Position numbers and translations under genes: made by a program. This document shows, piece after piece, positions 1 to 56,140 of a stretch of DNA of 64,000 nt; the first letter of the stretch is position 1, and each line of letters opens with the position of its first letter. The notes beneath the pieces are model-generated. The model searched no databases. It was not told the origin of the DNA and saw nothing but the letters and a program-made list of their open reading frames with translations. Source of the stretch: Podarcis gaigeae (lineage: Eukaryota); NCBI GenBank assembly GCA_964106915.2, contig OZ066919.1, one strand, 5' to 3'.

Positions 1-162
1 TCCGCTAACCCAGAAATAGTACCTTGGGTTAAGAACTTTGCTTCAGGATGAGAACAGAAATCATGCGGCGGCAGCAGTGGGAGGCCTCATTAGCTAAAGT
101 GGTGCTTCAGGTTAAGAACGGACCTCCGGAACGAATTCAGTACGTAACCAGAGGTACCATTG
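1..162. mobile_element. Tc1/mariner (Tigger/pogo-like) MITE, right part cut by window edge
   Basis: Same internal sequence as the copies at 37465, 42616 and 55660; ends gaggtaccattg followed by TA. Confidence 0.85.
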
Positions 163-1724
163 TATTTTGTTTACAACCAATATATGGTGAAAGCCTGCAC
201 TAGATTCTCCATTATTCAGAAAGCCTCCTTTCTCCTACCAATGTCTATGCAGAAGGCTAAATTTATGCTTCCCTATATTTAATGCTCAGAGAGTGCAGCT
301 ACACTTTTTAAAAGCTGTTATTTCTTTTTAATTTTGCATATTTGCAAAAGCATTTGGCATACTCCTCACAGCTAGCTTTCTAAATCCCCAGCCTATCTCT
401 GATCCATTTAGGGGAAACCGAAACTGTGCTTAAGGGTTTGTTTCAGAGCCTTTTGCCTCTCTTCCAACATGGCAGTTTCTCGTGTATCCATCTCACATGT
501 ATTATTTCTAAAAGCTGTTCTTATAAAGAGGTTTTACAAGCTTACTCTTGATTTGGTAAAATATCTGTTTATATAATTTTTCTTTTACAAATTGGTCCCC
601 TCAGGATCTCAGGAGGGGTGTTTATATTAAACAGCATTTATGTAAATCAGTATGATTATAGAACATGTTGGTTTGCTGATAATTTCAGAGTCAGAAAGCA
701 GTGGAACAGGCAGAAAAATACATGGGCAGCCCTGTGTCTCACAAGTCCTGTGCGTGGCGTAGGTTGAGAAGACTATTTAGAAAAGAGTAGTTATTTTTGG
801 CATTTTCTTCATGTTGTGGACAGAGTTGGGAACTGTTGTTTCTAGGAAATTCTGACATTAGGTTTAAAGATGGAAAGGCCTGTTGTGAAACAACACTGGA
901 CTTTGTTTAATGCATTGCAAGTGGAATTCCTGTTAAGTGTAATAGAAGAGTGCTATCTGGAATAGTTTCCTGCCTAGATTGCCATAGAAGTAATTAATAT
1001 AGGCTTTGCACTTCCCAAGTAATGGCTTTTTGGTGAGGAGCTCTAGTACATTGTGTACAAAATGCACTTAAAACGGGTGACAGGACTGCCTTTGAAGTAC
1101 TTGAACTGAGACACATGCTCCCCTTCCCCAGCGACATGAAATTGAGTTTACAGAGAAACAAACTGTGTCTCTTGAACCAAATGAATTATTCTGCTTTGAT
1201 TCCCAAAACAGTTTAGATGTGTATGGTTTGTGACAAGACTTGGTGGTGATAAGATGGCAGTACCATCTGAACAGAGGCAGGGCTAGTTTTTCAAGTGCTT
1301 GTCACTTAAAGGGTTAGATTAATAGTGCCTATGTCTTGGAGTGGTACAATGAATGGCTCAAGATATGGGGGTGCAGCAGGTATATTGTACCCCTGCCTGT
1401 GGTCAAAACGGGGCCTGGGACCTCAGAAAACATTTGCATATATTGTATGAAGACAACATTTACATTTTGTGTAAGCCTACATAAAACACCATAATATTTC
1501 TTCTCCCAGAGCATAGGTTAACTTCAGCTTTGCGTTTGGACTTAACTATTAACACCAGAGTAGGAGGGAACACATGACCCCTCAACTTGCATATGTCATT
1601 CTATGCAAGTCTAGTATTATATCTAAACCAAGGCCTTTGACTGCTTTCCAGTTCTCTGCTAGTGAGACTTAAGTTTGGCTTGTAATCTACAAATAAATTG
1701 TAATCTACAAACTCTAAAGTACCT

Positions 1725-1892
1725 TACCCAGTTTGGATGTAATGATGAAATCTGGTTAGTACTTTATTAACAAGCAGATTCTTCTGATCTCCTCCTTGCA
1801 GCTGTGCCAAAGAAAGATGTGGGAGCATGTAAACCTAGGTTTGCTTCTATTCACATGGCACTATGGTTTAACTACAATATGCAAAGTAGACC
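1725..1892. mobile_element. Degenerate squamate MITE-like repeat (aaaccatggttt-type family)
   Basis: Recalled family motifs gatgtaatg...tggttag, cttctgatctcctcc, ctatggttta. Family assignment from memory only. Confidence 0.35.
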
Positions 1893-4800
1893 TGGTATCA
1901 ACCTTATTAGATCCGCAAGCAATTTTTAGAGTTTTGTGGACCTGATAATACTCTTCTACAAAAATCAGAATTTATTTTAGCCTTAGTGGCAATGATTATA
2001 ACTTATTTTTAGAGCAGTTTTGAAAAACCGCACATGGTTACTGCAGCAGGGAGAGAACAGGAAAAGGTTTGCATAGTGAAGAATACAGCCACATGAAGTA
2101 GTGGTTTATTTTTATTTTCACAGTAAGAGCTAAACTAGGAAATTACTTAAATTTGATGGCCATCACCGATCCGTGTCTCTTTCCCTTGTCTCGTGGTGAC
2201 ATCTAGCTGAAGCAGATGTGTGATGTAATGCCATCGTGACCAGCATTTCTCAGTCCCTGTTCCATTTCATTTACCACTTCATTGACTGCTAAATGTAAGT
2301 GGTGAGTGAAATACTAAATGTGATGCCTCTTCAAGCATCTCCTTCAGCTAGAGGTTAACAAGAGACAAAGAATCATGGATTAGCATGGCCATGTGTTTCA
2401 GATAATGTCTACCTCTGGCCCTGAATAAAGCTAGTAATATATTGGCTCTGATTCAGGCTCTGTCAGCATTTAAGTTGCTAAGAATTATATCGCTGGCACT
2501 TACTTATTAGATTGCTGTTTATTTCTTGTATCTGTGGATAGTGATGCTGAAAACTGCATTCTTCTTTCTGTCGGACATAATTCCCCATCCAATATGCAAC
2601 CATCAGCCTTCTGTTTTCTTAGTATAATCACTGCAGTTAAGACTGCTACCTGCGGAACCTGTTTGATGCCAGCTAATATTGTAAACAGTGTCCAGCAATG
2701 GACTTTCCTCCCTCCTCTTCCTTTCATGCTTGCTTGTACTAAGGAAATTTGATCAACATGAAGCTTTGGCTGTCTGTCTGCTGTTACTATGTGTGAGACA
2801 GGGGTGGGAGAGAAAGGGAGACATACCAGCATACCTATGACAAAAGAGCATGTGCATAGATATGCAGACTGAGAATTCACTCACTACTTTATGCTTCCTT
2901 TTTGCAAATTGTAAGCAGTAAATTCCCTCAGATTTTGCTTACCTTCTTTGTGTTTCAGAATACCCCGAAACTGCATCCCCTTGGCTCACTCATACTAGAA
3001 GCCTTGAGTGCTCCAGTAGGTTTATGGATCAGCTCTACTACACTCCAAAAATAGTAATTCAGCCCAGCTGCTTTCAGAGTAATATGTTAAATACAAAAAA
3101 TGACACTAACGTAGTGGTAATGATTAGACTTTATACCAGTTTCTTTCAAACTGTTCCTAATATTCTGCTTCTCATTCGTAGGCAGACCTACGATAATGTG
3201 ATTGCATTGAAAATGTCATGTGAAAGGTGGTTTCTATCTAAATTAAGTTCCAAAATACATAATAAGTGTCTTAAAATGTGACTACTTGTCTGTATTCATT
3301 GTGAAAAATGGCAAAAGGACTTAATTTTGCAGCCAGCTGTGTCCTAGAAAGATTTCATTATATTATACTTGTATTGCATGGCAGCAACTTGTCATGCTCT
3401 CTTGTTTGTTACCAAGACATTCACAATACTTAGCCAGGCTGTAACGGCAAGCTAATGTGTGTCTGTGTCCAATACTCTGAATGGTCAAGAGCTGTTCTTG
3501 TCCCTGGTCCTGGGTGCTGTACTTGGCAGAGAGAAGTGACTCTCACATGAAAGTCAAAATAGAAATATATTTTGGGTCAAACTGGGCTCTGAAAGACATT
3601 TCTCTCTAGTAGTCATTAATCTCCAAAAAAACAAGCTTTGGAACTAAGCCAGCTCATATTATCCAAAGCTCATATTATCCCTCATATGGCAAAATGCACA
3701 ATACATTACTTGGACTTGATCAGACCAATTCCCTGTTCCCCATTTTTCTCCACTACTGGTTTAAAAACATGTGAGCAATATAGATTTAAATTCAGTCAGA
3801 GTTGTTGTTTCTCTTTATAAATATCCTAAAATTGTCACTTCCAACAGCTTTCTAGAGCATCCATAAATGAAGACCTTTGTAAACAGAGACATGTTTCCAT
3901 AGCAAAAAAAAAACCAAGTGCTGCTCTGGTTTTGTTTTCAGTTTAAAACTTCAGTGTGTTTTTTTGGCCCTTGAATCCAGGCATCTGTGTGACAGCTGGC
4001 TTTCATGGGCGTCTTCTTCCCTTTAATATTCAGAAGACTAAAAAGGATGAAGGGTGAGCAGATAACAAGATCTAGTTCTTACGATGGTGTGAACAGCCTG
4101 TTGATGGTATGACTACAGTTTTGATAATGGTGAAGGTCTGATGTGGTACCCTCCAGGATTAGGGCAAGCTACCCAAATATACTTGGAGAAACAGGCAGTG
4201 TAAGATGACAAATGAAGCCTAGAAAAGGATGACTAAAGTGACTATCTGGCTCTCAAACAAACAAACAAACAATTCATCACTAACAACCACGAGAGTGTAT
4301 CTGAAAGGATTTTTTATGATGAGGGATATGAATTATTAATTAAACAAATAAATGTCACAAAAATTTAAGTACTCTTTTATACCGTATACCAGCTCTTCTT
4401 AAAATTAGCACTTCATATAAGTAACATCTGTTTAAGAGAAAGTGAGTGTGCTCTTGATTATTCTTGTTATGTTTTGTCAAATTCTTACTGCCCATTTTAT
4501 TTCTAAGTCTTGTCCTCTTGTGCCGGATTTAGTAGATGTGGTTGAGCCTGAACTAGGTGGAGCTCATTGTGTTGCCAAAGAAAATAAGTTGTCTCTCTGC
4601 ATGTTTTAGAAAACTGATTTTGGAGATTATACACATTGTTTGTAAGCTTTATAGGCCTGTCTGCACATATTTTGCTTCTATTAGTCTGGTATGCTACATT
4701 TTTATACAGTATTATGAATTTTGTGTCTGCTTTATTTGAATTAAACTGTGTATCTGAAACAATATATTGATTTTGAAAACTTAAATTAAATATACTAATT

Positions 4801-6103
4801 AATTTTCAGAAGAAAAATAAATCTCGTCAGTGGCATCTCTGGAGGCTTTTCCAGAGTCTAATAGTTTATTAGCTTGTACACAGATATTGAATTTGCTGCT
4901 GTTGTTTACTTTTGAAAGAGCACAAGAAGCAATTTCCCTCCCCTGCAGTTTTTCCATGACCTTCTAGACCAGTGGTTCCCAATCTTTACAAGTAAATGGA
5001 CTCCCTTTTAACCATGAAGATGTTGCAGATTTGCACATACTAATTGTTGCAATTTTAGGCTCCATAAATTAGGAAAATAAATAATGACAGCAAACTATTA
5101 TGAACTCAGTAACCTTAGATGAGGTAGAGATTTGATCTGATTCATCAGGGCGCTTCTTGTATTAACACAACTGTGCATAAGGAAAAATTAAAACAGGTGC
5201 ATATTTTATACCGCTGCAGCACTTAAGATGGAGAAACAGAAACACTTCTGAAATACTGTCTTCTGCACTATTTTCAAACCTGCGTGTCTTTTCATCATAG
5301 CATGGCCATCTCCTTGTCCTCTGACTGCACTCCTATGCACTTATTTTGAGGATCCCAAAACAAACGTTATGCAGGGGATTTGCTCAGAAATTGGAAAAGA
5401 TGAAAAAGATTTAAAAAGCTGGTGTTTCCGGGCTCTTCCTCTACCATGTTCTTGCCATTGCTTTGCTGGGGAAGCCATGTGTATTAAATACCCTTTAAAT
5501 ATATAGTGTAGCATTGGCCTGATACAATTAGAGACTGTGTAAGGAGAAGTTTAATTGTGCACAGATGACTGATTCCTGAAGGAAACACAGTATCTTGTTG
5601 AATAAAATGAACCCCAAAATATGAAAGGAAGTATTTATTCCATCTAAATTAGAGTAAATAGATTTTACACCCACCCAAAAGCCCCTCTGAATATTTTCTA
5701 CCTCCTGTTTGCTATACACATGCATTACTCAAACCAAACCATTTAGGGGTGGGGGTGGGGGACAGATTATGTGTCTGATTGTTCTCTCCATGCCTATAAA
5801 TGCATGAGAGGGAAGAGAATTGAGAGAAAGACCAAAATACATTGTGTATGTAAGTAAGTGTCACTTTGAGACAGAAATTTTAAATCCTGTGAATTGACAT
5901 GTTTATGAGATTGAGGGGAGGGGAGATTAAACACTTATATGGTATTGCTGCTTGGTGAAAATGAGAGTAAATGTAAGCATAGAGAAGAAAGAGAAAATGG
6001 CAGGAGGAATGGAAAGGTCAGGATTGAGTTCACTGTTTCTTTTTCTTTGCAAAAATTCACTGCTGCAGCATAACCCATTATCATTCTCCTCCCTCTGAGA
6101 CAG

Positions 6104-6580: not shown

Positions 6581-6659
6581 TTATTTTTCCAGCCACAACA
6601 GAAGAGGCTGGTAGGATGTCTCCTACCAGCCTCTTCTGTTTTAAATGAGATTAGTATAC

Positions 6660-7565: not shown

Positions 7566-7660
7566 GTTCTCAAAGCCAGCACCAATGTTTTTGGATGATT
7601 CCTTCAGAAAGTGGGCACGAATCCGGGACTTTGTACCGCCTTTTGGAATTAAAGGGCAAG
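7566..7660 (+). CDS. ST3GAL3: ST3GAL3 internal coding exon A (95 nt, phase 2-1): (R)FSKPAPMFLDDSFRKWARIRDFVPPFGIKGQ(D)
   Basis: Polypyrimidine-ttcag acceptor and gtagga donor. Translation is near-identical to the vertebrate ST3GAL3 stem region FSKPAPMFLDDSFRKWARIREFVPPFGIKGQ. Missed by the ORF track. Confidence 0.96.
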
Positions 7661-10600
7661 GTAGGATAGCAGTAGTTCATTTTCCATAACTTGAATGCCC
7701 TGCTGAAGTACAAAAATAGAAGGTGCCTATAGTTAAACATACTCTGTGTGTCTATGGTATCTGCCGCTTGTGGACTTCAACTGCTAACGAGCCCCATCAG
7801 CAGTAATAGGGGGAGCCCTGTTGCTCCACTTGAGCAACAGGGCTCCCCCTATTTCCCTCCACATGACCCTGTGGCCCCTGAAATTGGCTCTGAAATATCA
7901 TGTGGCAAGTTGAAATGCTTGTGCAGACAAAACATTTGTAATTGTGTGATGTTGAAGTCTACATTCTTGAGTGGGGACTAGGACACCACCAGGTGGATAT
8001 TGTTACCCTCTACTCGATTGAGAGGCAGAGCTTTGACTAGATGTCTGGTCCTCCCCTTCCCTGAGGAACAGTTCGTTTTTCTGCCTCACTTGCGAGTTCA
8101 CTTATTTTCACTGTGCATTTCTGGCCTCATTTGAAATTCACTGTCTGATTAGAAGAACGTGTGGATGTTGTACTGTTATTCTGAGTTCCTATCAACACTA
8201 TTTTTAGTTCTGCCTGATTACCAGTTGGCTTGCTTCTTTGCAAACTGAGCTTTCCCACCTCAAAAATTCCTTCCTAGTTCCTCCTTCAAGCATATCAAGA
8301 CATTTAACAGCCCTCCACAAGCTCTGGTGCTATACTTTAAGAATTAATTGTACAGCTGATTACCCTAAGAATTAATTGGAAAATTAATTATCCTTTTAAA
8401 AATAGAACTGATTACCAGTTAAAGGAAGTTGATCCTGACTCTGTGATTACCCACACCTATTGACTCTGATCCTGTGAATTAATTACCTAAAGTGGCATAG
8501 TTTGTACTTTGATCCTTTTGTAGCCACTTTGGAAAGATCAATGAGTAGGGTGCAAATTAATTCTGCATCTCAGAAATTACATTACTTGCCTGCATTATTT
8601 GTGAATATTGGGATTACTTGGCCCATATTGTAAGACTTCAGTTCATGATACTGGGTATAACATAAAGTGATCCTAGAATTGGGCTCCATGAGGTCTTGTG
8701 TATTGTTAGATATGATTTAATTAACACTGTGCATGGGGAACTGGTAACAGTCTCACTGTAGCATCTGTTTTCACACTGCAGTAGGCGCGGGACTGAGTGT
8801 AAATAAATCTGCTCTATATGAGGCAATATATATTATTATTCATATAATGACATTAGTTTCCCTAATAAGGGGAGGGTCTTGGAAGCCTGAGCTTGCCAGT
8901 GTTATAGTCCTTGTACCTAGTATAAGGAGGAATTTGTTCACCCTTTCCCTATCATTGTACCAGACCCAGTCAGTGTAGATGTAATAAGCTGTATACATTG
9001 TTCTTCTCTTATGCTTCCCTCTTAGCAAAGCGGATATTAAATACAGCTGTGCAAATTGTCCAGAAATAGAAACTCTTCATTCACTGCAAGAGATTTGCAC
9101 CATTCTTTATCTGCTGGCTTTCAAGGTGTGCAGATACAGAGAGGAATACAGGTCTTTGTAGTAGGTGGTTTTAGGTCTCGGAAGCAGCTGATCAAGTCTT
9201 TTGCCAAGTAGAATAAAAATGGAGAACCTCGACACAGGATGACTGAATATATTTGGCAGTCTTTGCTTTGCATTTCCAGGTTGCTGCCAGCTTGTGTCAC
9301 CACTACAGTGTTATGTAAATCCAGGGTTTTATATTGGATTTTCTTCAGTTAAAAACAGAAACTGCCATTACTTAAATGGCTGGGAGCTGAAGCAATGGGA
9401 GCAAAACAACTGAATGGATTGTTTAATGCCCTCATGGGACAGAACTTTGTGCCAGGATTCAGTCCAAGGCAGTTTGTATATGTGGGAGGGAAGAATTATT
9501 ACTCTCTGAAAACTGGTGAGCCTAATGGCTGTGCTGACAGGCTAGGAGCGTGAGAGAGGCAAATGGCAACCTTCTCGCATCACACGTCACTGGGATTCTT
9601 ACATCAGCTTTTTCTGCTTATCCCAGGGGATGCATTGGGGATGAATAATAGTGACCTGATGATGGGATCAGCACCTCATTAAGGTCTTCAGTCAGGGCTA
9701 GTCTGGTGCCAGTTGAAAGGAGACTGCAAGAAGAAGTTTCTGGTGCTTGCCAGAACTACAGCAACTGGAGAAATTGGGCGATGCTTGAGAAGAGGATGTG
9801 CCAGTTTAGCATCAGAGGGCAGCTAATCCTTCATAAAGACCCTACCTTTGTCAAGGAAGTGTACCATGAAAAGTGCTTGGTGCAAATGTTCAGGAGCTTC
9901 AGTCTGCTTGTCAGCTGTTTGATTTGAAATGGCAAGGGGGATTAACTTGCTTTGTTCTGTGAACTTGGGATCACCCTGGCTGTGATGTACATAGTCTGCA
10001 CAGTAACATTTTAAAGTTTCAAGCTGTTGTACCAGACTGTTTTAGTCTGTGAGTTGTTTGTCAAACTGATTCCGAGAGTTCTTCTTCTATGCCTTTTCTG
10101 GGTTGGCTTCACCAAGAAGCAAGCTAACCCAAACGTTAGTGTTGAGATTGGACTAGGTTTCATACCAGTAGACTACTGTATATTTTATAATTATTAATAA
10201 GCATGGTTGGTTTCAACATAGCAATTTGTTACAAATGCCACACGTGCCATAACTTCTTAAGTTATTTACTCAAATGCAAAGGCAAATAATAGCAATAGAA
10301 AAAAACTTATTCATTTATTTATATAACAAAGTCAATATGCTGGTTAATCAACAAAAACTTCTATGCTATAAAACTATGTAGAATAATGTCTGAGAAGGCA
10401 CACATTAGGAAAATGTCATGTCAGAATTCTTCACCTGTGTGAATTTTCTGGAACAGCTCCTGCTGGCTCCTGATCATGGGATTGTCCTAGAAAAATCTGT
10501 GTGGATGACCAATTTTAACTTCACATTTTTCACATATATGCCTACATTCCTGTGGAGGCAAGTGTTACGTCAAAGTGTTTGCTTTTATGAGCTCTGCAGG

Positions 10601-35721: not shown

Positions 35722-37464
35722 GTAAGTGTGCAGGAAGCTTACCCCCAATATGACACTTTATTTTGTGCTGCTTATAGAAAGCAAAATGTGAATTTAATCC
35801 ATGATCCGTAGTCCTTTCCCAAAGCCACACTCATCTAATAGAGGTAATTCCTCTGGTCAGAGACTCTGTAACTTCTGTGTTTGTGCAGTGTCTAGCATAC
35901 TGGTGCTAAATGTTAGATAGAAGCTGTAATAGTGATTATCAGAAAGGTGATTAAAAAATGATAAAAATAGATTTCACAAATGAGGAATGCAAATTGCAAC
36001 GTTTCACATAAAACAGGTATGACTGGGTCAGATGTGGTCATATGTGCTATATGTTTTAAATTGCATCAATACACATATGATACTGCTTCATGTTGCTTGA
36101 GAGAGTATGTACTTATGTACTTCCCTGGCACATGGGGGAAGTACATTGTTTTCCCTCCTTCAAGATATATAAATTGAATAAGTTGTTGTTATGTGAAATG
36201 GAATTCTCTCAAAATGAATGCAGCTGGAAGATGTCAAGATAAGTTCTTACTGGGACCTTTTGGGTCCCCAAAACGTTTTGCCACCAACCCTTACTACACT
36301 CAACACAACTCAGTGATTTTTAGGGCCATGGAGCCTGTGCCCTTAATGAAGCAAATGTGTTCATTTGCCAATGACTCCAACTGCTTGTCACAATATCAGC
36401 CACTTACCACTTCCTTTTAAAATTTGTAGCATCAAGTGACAGGTACTGCCAGTTGCCTTAATATACATATTGTGAAATTTGCTGCTATCTGCAAGCAAGT
36501 GTAAGTAACTGGAGCAAAATTTACATTTTTGATGAAAAGTTCTAGCCCATGGGAATATGGTATTCCACTTGTTTTAGTTTTACATCCCATAGCTTGTCTT
36601 ACAGAGGCTAGGCTAGTCTCATTTGCAGAAAAATCAGTCTGGCCACCTGCTTCTTCTTTGGGGAATATAAACAGGGACGTACAAGCAGGTTTCAAGATTC
36701 CAGCCAATTAACAGGAATCTTATAGCACTGTTTGTGGGCTCATATAATGCTGGAGTGATCATTTTTTTACCTGATGGCACACATCTGCACATAATGCTAC
36801 TCTTCTTGCTTGGATGCTATAAGTAAGCTTAAGCAGGCCTATTTCTTCCTTCAGTTTTCTTTTTTATTTCTTCAGCCAACACCTTTGGCAAACCATGGCT
36901 GAACTTCCCTCAAGATTCTGTAGGTACTGGAAGTTTATAGGTCCTTGCTAGGGCATTTTCACATTATTAATATTATTATTTTAAATAATGAAATAATATA
37001 TTTCTGAATATTTGGGGAATCTCCTCAATATGCAGAATTACCACCTTTGTTTGGATGATGGACTTGTTTTGCTTCCATACTGATGGGCATGGAATCACCT
37101 AAGTTTTGTATTAGAGGGGATGGTGATATTTTCATTTTATTATGTATTTTATGTTCTGATTTTCATTTTAATATTGTGAACGGCCCTGTGATCTTCAGAT
37201 GAAAGGCAGTATACAAATTTCAAAAGTAAATAAATATGAAAAACAACTCAATTCAATTTTCATCATTCTTATGTCCTTCACTCAGGAATGGACTCCCTTT
37301 CACTTTGAGGGATTACAGCAAAAATGTTCCCTTAATTTCTCCAGTATGTTAGCAGTGTGAGTAAACATAGAGTATAAGGTAATTTGTAGATGGAACAGAG
37401 CTGCTGATTAGAGGACACAGAAAAGAATGTTTCATCTATGTCTGAGATACACTTCATCACTATA

Positions 37465-37706
37465 CAGTGGTACCTCGGGTTACATATGCTTCAGGTTACA
37501 TACGCTTCAGGTTACAGACTCCGCTAACCCAGAAATAGTACCTCGGGTTAAGAACTTTGCTTCAGGATGAGAACAGAAATCGTGCTCTGGCGGCGCAGCA
37601 ACAGCCGGAGGCCCCATTAGCTAAAGTGGTGCTTCAGGTTAAGAACAGTTTCAGGTTAAGAACAGACCTCCGGAATGAATTAAGTACTTAACCCGAGGTA
37701 CCACTG
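37465..37706. mobile_element. Tc1/mariner (Tigger/pogo-like) MITE
   Basis: Perfect TIRs cagtggtacctcgggtta / taacccgaggtaccactg, TA TSD, internal ttcaggtta subrepeats. Confidence 0.92.
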
Positions 37707-39444
37707 TACTAGAATTGATAGAATGGGAAACCATGCAGACATTCCTTAAGCCTCTTCAGGTCCTATTTATTTCTGTTACAATATATTCCTGTCATTAGAT
37801 ATAGAAAAAGTAAATGATCCTCCCAAGACCCTTCCTCATATGCCTTTTAAATATCTGGGTTTCTTTTGCTGGAAGAGGACAAATTGCCCAGCTAGGTCAG
37901 CTCTGTGCTTCAGCATTCTGTCTTCATCATTAGGCTGCATTATCTGATTCAAAGGAATGGGTAAAAGATAAACAATTGTTGCATAGAGCCAGGACAAGTT
38001 GCCTGTTAAGAAGATTTTAACACCTTCCCCACAGTATGTTTTTTCTTGTTCCCCCAGCAAGGTAGATAATGTATTTTGAAAAGCTTCTTGATTAATATTT
38101 GGAATCATTTTCAGTTAAACTGTTTTTTTATTGAGTATATACCCAAGTATATTCTCATAGTTGTGTGGTTTTTTTTAATCCTCATAAATTTGTTATCCTA
38201 CTTTTTTGTACTAGTGACAACCAATCTAAAGGTGACATTGTGCAGAAAAATATTTCCTCATCTCAGTTTTCACTCTTTGCTTCACAGAATGGCCCTTATT
38301 CTTTTATCCTATGAGCTAGGCAGGCTAGATATTGCCCCTCTGCATTCCTGTTGGACTTTGTAATTATAGAGATGTTTGTCATCTCCTCTCTAAGGTAAAC
38401 AATCCCAGCCTTTGCAATTTTCCTGTACAGAAGAATCAGCCCAGACCCGTGAGAGTTCATTCCCCTTCCTTTTCTGGCATACTCCACCCCCACAATACAT
38501 TTGGAAGGTGTGTTTTTTTCATGAAATGGGAGACTTGGAATGAATACACTTTGCTAGGTGGGATTTCTAAAGGTGTGCCATGGCCTGCTATGAGAGAGCA
38601 CTAGGCAGTAAGCTTCTTAGAGAGTGAGTGAGTCAGACCACCTAGATGGCGAAGAGTCATGTGATGAAATTCAATCAGTTTATTTATGCAGACAGACATG
38701 GAGAAAAAATATGTAGTGATTAGACTCTGAAATCAAGAACATGCAAATTTGGTGTAAGATGCACTTCTAGTCATTAAGAATAATTGCACCCAAAACGACT
38801 CAAAGAGAATGATGAGAAAGCCAGGGATACTACTGAGATTGACTATTTTCTTAAACAAATGTAAGTAATCCAGGTGTTTAGTTTCTACGTACATAAGAGA
38901 TAAAATGAGACATTCAAAGCTCTTTCCCCCTAAAAATTAACCTTCAGAAGTGGGAAAATAGTCAGAACTGAACATCAGGAAGACATCTTGCATTATTTCA
39001 TTTTCATTTTCAATTAGGCTGGATTTTAACACACAGCAAAGCAACTCATTATTTACAGATATGCTGAAAATATGATTGCAGAATGCATAGTAGAATACTT
39101 TAATTGTGTATTTTCTGTTGGTCATTTTTATATTTGTGTTCTGCATACTGACTATAAACATATATGAAATCTATTAAAACCAGCCCTTTCATTAAAAGCC
39201 CCAAAGCCTGTTGGAGCAAGAAAGTCTTCACCAGCCAGCACAAGGACAACAAAGAAGGAGCCAGTCTAGCTTCTCTAGGGAAGGAGTGATTGCAATTTAA
39301 CTTCTCAAATATGCTCTGCCCCTAGTAGCATGTATATTCTTGTACCAGAACAACCGGCTGATTGTCAGGAAAAGTGGGGCTTCAAAGCATTGCGCAGGTT
39401 GAAAATGGGTCTCCTGATGTATTAGTGACATCAGTTGATTGACA

Positions 39445-41995: not shown

Positions 41996-42615
41996 TAGAG
42001 CAGTGGTTTCCAGTTAGCTAAGTACTGCAGACCCCCTGCTTTTCAAAAGCCAAGCTATGAACCCCCCACTTTTGAAAATGTTATCTATGTGGTAGTTTTT
42101 ATTACGTGCATAGTGCCAGCATAACCCTCCAACATGTCCCAGCACAAAACCAGGACAGGCACCTTCCAGCTTATAATTCTTTCAGGTAAATAACTAAAGA
42201 CCACTACTTCTAATTAGCATTCAGGGTGCATCCTTATAAATCATTTTTTGTAGCAGATTGATTACGCAGAGTAATTCACACTCTTATCTTTTCTGTCCTT
42301 GCTACTATCATTCCAATTATACAGAATGGAAACTAATGTTAGTAGAGATAGTATCTAGCTCTCTGTGTGGTCTTGGGTAATTCATGAGCTAGGCTTTAGT
42401 TGTCTTTTCAGCCAGTTTGTTGCTCTAGTGAGAAATGACATCCATAGGAGTGACTGAATTCAGCTGATACATATTGATGCTGTGCTCATGACCTGGCTTG
42501 TTTACCTGCTGTAAATGTGTGTTGCATTTGTATCTGTTCAGCATGATCTTAAGCCATAGAATGCACTTTTCTGCAGTTATTTGGTCAAACTGGACGTTGC
42601 ATACAACAGCATGTA

Positions 42616-42847
42616 CAGTGGTACCTCGGGTTACAGACCCTTCAGGTTACAGACGCTTCAGGTTACAGACTCCGCTAACCCAGAAATTAGTACCTCAGGT
42701 TAAGAACTTTGCTTCAGGATGAGAACAGAAATCGTGTGGCGGCGGGGGGAAGCCCCATTAGCTAAAGTGGTACCTCGGGTTAAGAACAGTTTCAGGTTAA
42801 GAATGGACCTCCAGAATGAATTAAGTTCTTAACCCGAGGTACTACTG
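42616..42847. mobile_element. Tc1/mariner (Tigger/pogo-like) MITE
   Basis: Same TIRs and TA TSD as 37465-37706. Confidence 0.92.
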
Positions 42848-43318
42848 TATACAGGACCCAGCCAGGGGTGTATGTTAGTCTGTTTAATGAAAAGCAATCT
42901 TGAGGGGCTGTACTTTTCCATGAAATAGCTGAGACTATGTGAATGTACACTTTAACTCTTTCCTTGCTGGCCATATTCCTGCTCAAAATCACCCTTCCTA
43001 AACTGCCTTTTTCTGTGATTTGGATTATATTTGCCGTTATAAAAATGTATTTTTATGTAAAGTGTCATATGCCCCTTATTCTGCATTATACCTCAAGTAT
43101 ATGTTGAACAAAAGATTTCTAAAATTATTGCCTTTTCAAAGGACATTGATTTAAGCCTCAAAAGCTGGAAGAAATGCTAGATCTTTGACTTTCTCCATTA
43201 TCTTCACTGTTAATTTATCGAATTTGTTGTAAGATATCCTCCCAATGGAGACAATGCCTGAAGACATTGTTGTAAGCTGCCCAGAGTGGCTGAGGCAACC
43301 CAATTGGATGGCTGGGGA

Positions 43319-55600: not shown

Positions 55601-55659
55601 CTTTACAGAAATAAAGTGTGAGTTAGCGGGTATCATAGTGTCACCATGCATAGGATTTA

Positions 55660-55901
55660 CAGTGGTACCTCGGGTTACAGATGCTTCAGGTTACAGACAC
55701 TTCAGGTTACAGGCTCCGCTAACCCAGAAATAGTACCTCAGGTTAAAAACTTTGCTTCAGGATGAGAACAGAAATCGTGCTCCGGCGGCGCGGTGGCAGC
55801 GGGAGGCCCCATTAGCTAAAGTGGTACCTCAGGTTAAGAACAGTTTCAGGTTAAGAAAGGACCTCCAGAATGAATTAGGTTCTTAACCGGAGATACCACT
55901 G
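55660..55901. mobile_element. Tc1/mariner (Tigger/pogo-like) MITE
   Basis: Same TIRs and TA TSD as 37465-37706. Confidence 0.92.
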
Positions 55902-56140
55902 TACACTGTTCTGAAGCTACTGATCCTGTAACTGCTATGCCCTGCTTCAAACTGCTTCTGCTTCTCTCCATTGCGACTGGTATACGTTTATGTCAGCAAT
56001 TTTCGAACTCCTCCCACATCCCATGAATCATTTGAAAGTTGCTGAAGGTATTGGTGGACCACTTAATGATTTTTTTGCCTGTTCTGGCAGTTTTAATTCC
56101 ATAGAAATTTGTAATACATTAAAGTACAATATAATAGACA

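Follow-up and report, generated by a model that had tools for sequence, protein, structure and literature searches.

The locus raises the question of whether a fold-back deep in a long ST3GAL3 intron acts as an RNA structure, and if so on what, or whether it is only the remnant of an old palindrome. The window, a 64,000-nucleotide stretch of Podarcis gaigeae contig OZ066919.1, contains an imperfect palindrome that a first-pass annotation had read as a selected RNA duplex in ST3GAL3 pre-mRNA, mainly on account of a G-U bias on the sense strand. Both the gene and the plus-strand orientation were named correctly, as the exon translations match ST3GAL3 entries. The hairpin lies inside a 37.4-kb intron of this gene, bounded upstream by a 93-nt exon (L004:73-165) and downstream by the exon at 7566-7660. 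The 93-nt exon is a conserved cassette in the stem region of ST3GAL3, and is omitted in frame in 51 of the 120 listed ST3GAL3 entries (squamates, birds, a crocodilian and platypus). The downstream exon is flanked by two perfect hairpins, of 22 bp (7805-7853) and 20 bp (6597-6640); that at 7805-7853 folds at a z of about -7 on both strands.

The 237-nt fold-back is real. The four nested arms described earlier were found at the same coordinates. The outermost (2156-63/2385-92) has 8 of 8 Watson-Crick pairs and the second (2168-75/2374-81) has 6 Watson-Crick and 2 G-U pairs. The third (2186-2218/2336-2368) has 28 Watson-Crick pairs, 1 G-U, 3 G.A and 1 C.C in 33 positions, is the longest among 116 inverted pairs in the window, and contains an 11-bp perfect core with UAG on each strand. 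The inner stem (2264-83/2292-2312) consists of 18 Watson-Crick and 2 G-U pairs, is interrupted by a bulge at 2296 and closes on a loop of 8 nt. Folding energies are -92.7 kcal/mol for the sense strand (z -7.89) and -86.3 kcal/mol for the antisense strand (z -6.26); in the shuffle comparison proposed with the original claim, none of 200 dinucleotide-shuffled controls folded as well, whichever strand was taken. It is, narrowly, the most stable fold among the nine windows given z-scores.

Table 1. Features of the ST3GAL3 intronic fold-back and its surroundings (window coordinates).
Feature	Position	Strand	Description
Imperfect 237-nt fold-back	2156..2392	+	ST3GAL3 pre-mRNA sense
Outer arm, left	2156..2163	.	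Self-complementary 8-mer; also direct repeat of 2385-2392
Outer arm, right	2385..2392	.	Pairs with 2156-2163
Long arm, left	2186..2223	+	31 Watson-Crick and 2 G-U of 38 against 2331-2368
Long arm, right	2331..2368	+	Partner of 2186-2223
Inner stem, 5' arm	2264..2283	+	Complementary to both candidate donors
Inner stem, 3' arm	2292..2312	+	Carries both candidate donors
Candidate 3' splice site	2101..2123	+	T-rich tract, pyrimidines 14/20, CAG
Candidate 5' splice site 1 (GTAAGT)	2295..2300	+	U1 pairing -6.5 kcal/mol; bulged base is its T2296
Candidate 5' splice site 2 (GTGAGT)	2302..2307	+	U1 pairing -10.0 kcal/mol
Candidate cassette exon	2124..2301	+	Putative; ends at 2294 (171 nt) or 2301 (178 nt)
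In-frame stop codon	2131..2133	+	Frame from upstream phase-2 exon
Next ST3GAL3 coding exon	7566..7660	+	Previous coding exon is L004:73-165

Two candidate 5' splice sites, seven bases apart, both lie in the 3' arm of the inner stem. Noticed post hoc, this pair is the sole sense-strand case of tandem GTRAGT donors in 324 kb; the antisense strand has four, three of them in one cluster. Ranked by U1 pairing, donor 2302 is fourth among the 2121 GT sites of the intron, and it beats the three real neighbouring donors that were scored (-5.6, -7.1 and -9.2 kcal/mol). A donor of its strength is present in about 5% of 237-nt windows and in 3 of 68 fold-backs, this hairpin included. Pseudoexons are common in the intron: at a donor threshold of -6.5 kcal/mol or below there are 47 acceptor-donor pairs, formed by 40 different donors, and five different donors reach -9.5 kcal/mol or below.

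Together with the acceptor ending at 2123, the two donors enclose an exon-sized stretch whose inclusion would bring in a premature stop, as in exons of the BRD3 5b type. The upstream exon ends in phase 2, so that the stop is the third new codon; the stretch also has stops in all three frames. A second exon look-alike lies at 2959-3016, with a strong acceptor at 2958 (16 of 20 pyrimidines) and a weak donor at 3017 (-5.3 kcal/mol), and is read through unspliced by a contig of X20.

Folding in five contexts leaves both donors paired every time, with a mean unpaired probability of 0.0-0.1 and a predicted opening cost of 16.9-20.5 kcal/mol. A strong unused donor in a predicted stem is also what characterizes the ATM and CFTR pseudoexons. 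The three imperfections of the inner stem all fall on donor letters: the bulge at 2296 and the G-U pairs at 2304 and 2306, which are the +3 and +5 G of donor 2302. This is expected if splice-site sequence holds the 3' arm and pairing alone holds the 5' arm. It can also be chance, and is not rare by itself because the donors occupy 12 of the 21 arm positions. A search for long-range helices competing with the hairpin gave none that stands out.

The locus contains a fold-back, tandem donors, an acceptor and an in-frame stop, with no second copy of the hairpin detected. The reading favoured here, tentatively and at somewhat less than even confidence, is that the inner stem masks the tandem donors and so likely silences the stop-carrying candidate exon 2124-2294/2301. 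The stem would form in the pre-mRNA, at a predicted cost of about 17 kcal/mol to open, and its pairing would keep U1 snRNP off donors 2295 and 2302; the long outer arms are predicted to tie up most of the candidate exon too. Were the stem opened, the exon would presumably be spliced in and the transcript passed to nonsense-mediated decay. Selection would then maintain the pairing, with G-U allowed, and not the exact letters. A passive pseudoexon silencer is more likely than a regulated poison-exon switch. The more ambitious form of the idea, in which an undescribed, conserved ST3GAL3 poison exon arose from an old palindrome and folds over its own tandem donors until the inner stem is opened, by a helicase or an RNA-binding protein or through editing or elongation rate, and the message goes to decay, is unlikely. 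Of the functions suggested in the first-pass annotation, a splicing element is the one favoured, by the anatomy of tandem donors in the inner stem.

Use of the candidate exon was looked for in proteins and in sequencing contigs. Neither its sequence nor the predicted short ending is present in the 120 longer and 15 shorter listed ST3GAL3 protein entries; isoforms targeted for decay are seldom annotated. A duck ST3GAL3 model (P0047) has a 69-codon in-frame insert at the junction before 7566, with the first residues (N-K) and last residue (M) expected of the candidate exon. As a counterpart of the hairpin this insert was rejected, since it scored z 3.9 against intron maxima of 4.7-5.0, no better than chance, and P0077 and P0118 likewise gave no match above chance. 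Other inserts or endings are found at that junction in the bird and turtle models P0077, P0122 and P0131, none matching the lizard intron above chance where tested.

Among the 24 sequencing rows, 6 are guessed to be RNA. Contigs X15-X17 of organism H (guessed RNA, depth 2-3) cross both donors unspliced, and no splice joint or loose end at the candidate exon was seen in the four low-depth contig sets. X15-X17 cover 2096-2398 and nothing else within 1500-3300, other parts being covered by X20. This coverage was considered as a sign of accumulation and rejected, because the runs had been selected with words taken from 1900-2700, a choice that favours invariant sequence. The three contigs differ from the window at 3, 1 and 0 letters (2145 and 2146 are those listed), counts that would have to be rated against the background divergence of organism H. 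One of them, X16, is a 216-letter contig that reads 2213-2398 and then 2213-2242 again, that is, a circle joining 2398 to 2213. The ends at the joint share 5 bases of microhomology, no placement of the joint is followed by GT, and the depth is 2.7, so that a back-splice is less likely than a switch by reverse transcriptase or during PCR in a single molecule.

In the ST3GAL3 literature searched for intron, RNA structure, splicing, editing, nonsense-mediated and microRNA, the element is undescribed, the PCCR and EvoFold tables lying outside that scope. ST3GAL3 has no match in five supplements of PMC8052449, among which the large PCCR tables are perhaps not included.

The evidence for constraint on the hairpin, from one related lizard, is modest. 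Organism B (contig X4) has 32 changes in 2243 bases and none listed in 2147-2405; for the 237 nt, 3.4 changes are expected (P about 0.03, Poisson, in a test set beforehand). The list for 1900-2700 can be taken as complete, since the share of intact 31-mers that it predicts (0.704) agrees with that reported (0.70). The grading as modest reflects that the count comes from organism B alone, a single close species and the only one fully covered by the 40 difference rows listed of 139, and that divergence is blocky: in X12 there are 10 changes in 1020 bases (2117-3136) as against 20-21 in the 550-770 bases beside it, and the Poisson value is therefore too optimistic. When 32 changes are placed at random, 54% of draws are expected to contain a gap of 260 bases at some point. 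The low divergence of organism B spans 1917-2405, past the hairpin, and the word shares of X7, X12 and X14 (0.68-0.69) speak neither for nor against constraint.

The G-U bias on which the RNA claim was first built holds within the stems as originally drawn, where there are 5 G.T against 0 A.C (P 0.031 one-sided and 0.063 two-sided, for boundaries drawn with G-U in mind), and shrinks beyond those boundaries. A strand-neutral self-alignment of the hairpin gives 8 G.T, one of them at the loop, against 4 A.C (P 0.19), and 5 G.A against 0 C.T; the minimum-energy folds have 7 G-U pairs on the plus strand and 8 on the minus strand. Random flips of the 16 mismatches reach the strand energy gap of the hairpin in 10% of 300 trials (P 0.10, not significant for the element as a whole). 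The gap itself, -6.4 kcal/mol, is equalled by 37% of 1032 windows. The asymmetry is concentrated in the inner stem, which taken alone folds at -23.5 kcal/mol (z -6.8) in the sense and at -15.4 kcal/mol (z -2.8) in the antisense direction. Strand balance prevails overall in the other 67 fold-backs of the 324 kb (122:108), and among the 24 that have four or more transition mismatches, 5 are one-sided at 80% or more. The hairpin has a mild lean to the sense strand, which is no proof. With counts of 8:4 and 7 versus 8 and a flip-null P of 0.10, the argument from G-U pairs is weak and does not by itself show selection at the RNA level; an excess counted in stems picked by hand is no evidence of it. 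RNAstrand, as the excerpted paper describes it, takes the strand information of G-U pairs from alignments and not from single sequences (PMC1892782).

These figures bear directly on a close rival to the masking stem, namely that the palindrome has no function. It would be left over from a local inverted duplication of long ago, made by template switch, or from a palindromic element in decay, and chance would account for both the donors and the G-U excess; this is held to be rather unlikely. A fold-back of this kind is not very unusual in this genome: the 324 kb contain 68 inverted repeats, 29 of them with at least 33 aligned columns, and of these long ones 9, the hairpin included, are without a second local copy. 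The folding z-scores of other windows come close (-7.2/-6.9 at 7681 and -6.5/-6.6 at -5879), and the energy gap and the one-sided fold-backs just described show how common such asymmetries are. Against a relic stand the unchanged hairpin of organism B, the unique sense-strand tandem donors inside the stem, and the joint lean of the G.A and G.T mismatches to the sense strand on a background that is balanced (122:108 and 48:45).

The hairpin itself is an old palindrome with no detected second copy. That no other copy is present in the window had been stated in the first-pass annotation, and the genome search detected none either. BLAST with three hairpin queries returned only the hairpin itself; four patterns allowing one to three mismatches matched 7, 0, 3 and 4 other places, none extending past the seed, and a gapped core pattern matched one other, unrelated place. 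In four relatives, DNA contigs matched at 80% likeness cover the hairpin evenly and in a single layer; they pile up at 1414-1505, a short multi-copy repeat fragment on which many partial contigs stack in all four. A high-copy lizard MITE, named at the outset as the finding that would count against a selected duplex, was thus looked for and is absent by BLAST, by patterns and in the contigs of relatives; with no second copy detected, a recent MITE is unlikely. Families diverged by more than about 25-30%, or very old and low in copy number, could escape these searches. A metagenome pattern scan for orthologues of the hairpin gave 12 stretches, about the number expected by chance and none related, and the only tandem repeat found was an AC run at 6100. 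Elsewhere in the window, a MITE-like element of about 240 bp with 20-bp terminal inverted repeats is present in three copies (37463-37708, 42614-42849 and 55658-55903).

The stem might instead be selected as an intronic RNA duplex independently of the donors, for example as a substrate of ADAR or a stem bound by protein. Its 38-bp imperfect arm on the transcribed strand, the UAG in each strand of the core, the high stability of the fold and the mild sense-strand lean are in keeping with such a role, and conserved intronic editing duplexes exist according to the excerpts of PMC4053846. It is nevertheless unlikely: no A>G change inside the hairpin is listed in the three contigs X15-X17, whose depth is 2-3, whose RNA status is guessed and for which the word index disfavours edited reads, and no partner helix with ST3GAL3 exons stands out.

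Also improbable is an account at the DNA level, in which an ancient palindromic repeat (Eulor, UCON or hAT-MITE type) was exapted as an enhancer or insulator and the RNA fold is a by-product. The hairpin folds on both strands, and the low divergence of organism B reaches beyond it. It is also flanked by a perfect 8-bp direct repeat formed by the outer arm, the length of a hAT target duplication being 8 bp. The earlier statement that no target site duplication is present was therefore not quite right; the 8-mer is self-complementary, so the palindrome alone explains this TSD-like repeat. The segment 2196-2209 on the minus strand is a candidate CTCF site by its likeness to the core motif; a 23-base pattern over it has seven other matches at three mismatches, against none for the reversed control. 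Many Eulor and UCON consensuses are palindromic. Like these ancient repeats, the lizard hairpin is non-coding, old and low-copy, and unlike them, as far as the excerpts of PMC5753468 describe them, it has no second copy in the BLAST and pattern searches or in the contigs of the four relatives. The excerpted text of PMC5753468 has no match for 'palindrom' or 'hairpin', and the literature on Eulor elements and palindromes gave no sequence-level lead for this one. Many ancient repeat families have fewer than 150 copies, according to a reviewer's remark in the excerpts of PMC3500645, and such families could be missed by the searches made here.

The pre-miRNA suggested in the first-pass annotation, which the two 21-22-nt arms, the 8-nt loop and the more stable sense strand of the inner stem would suit, is very improbable, as Drosha needs a stem of roughly 35 bp and this one has only 20 bp and no stable lower stem, its flanks being open in centroid folds, and Rfam has no match at E <= 1 over 1-6000.

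The masking of the tandem donors by the inner stem would have precedents, compared here as the excerpted sources present them. In the deep-intronic pseudoexons of ATM and CFTR, unused donors sit in stems, as shown by minigene mutation of human disease alleles (PMC1935003). The lizard locus resembles these in having a deep-intronic candidate exon with more than one donor nearby and with donors predicted to be unavailable in a stem. It differs in that the stem belongs to a 237-nt nested palindrome and in that its exon is a candidate. RNA structure also controls poison exons, such as BRD2 exon 3b and the cryptic BRD3 exon 5b (PMC10789245), and PCCRs loop out poison exons (PMC10573301). Common to these cases and to the present one are a stop-carrying exon, a conserved-looking intronic element and pairing predicted to lower inclusion. 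In the BRD2, BRD3 and PCCR cases, however, it is segments of the flanking introns that pair and loop the exon out, whereas in the lizard structure the 5' arms belong to the candidate exon and would pair directly with the donors; those exons have demonstrated inclusion and deep conservation, while the lizard exon is a candidate read from the DNA. Local stems over a 5' splice site are also known from MAPT exon 10 and SMN2 exon 7, where donor hairpins compete with U1 snRNP (PMC11802352). Those stems are short and on real coding exons, and the lizard stem, with a predicted opening cost of about 17 kcal/mol, would be much more stable and would act as a lock rather than a dial. A masking stem in ST3GAL3 would at best add to a known kind, that of ATM/CFTR and BRD2/BRD3.

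Loss of ST3GAL3 leads to developmental epileptic encephalopathy (PMC10767576, PMC10235173, in excerpt), and in the excerpted text of PMC13387830 the gene is named solely as differentially expressed. Should the palindrome prove neutral, it would serve only as a caution, since fold-backs and one-sided G-U counts of such size are frequent in this genome. If the stem does mask the exon, it would be another case of RNA structure guarding a long intron, in a medically relevant sialyltransferase gene, and a palindromic relic would have been turned into a splice-site lock. If the regulated form of the idea were true and common to mammals, the exon would offer a switch for dosage and a target for antisense in an epileptic-encephalopathy gene.
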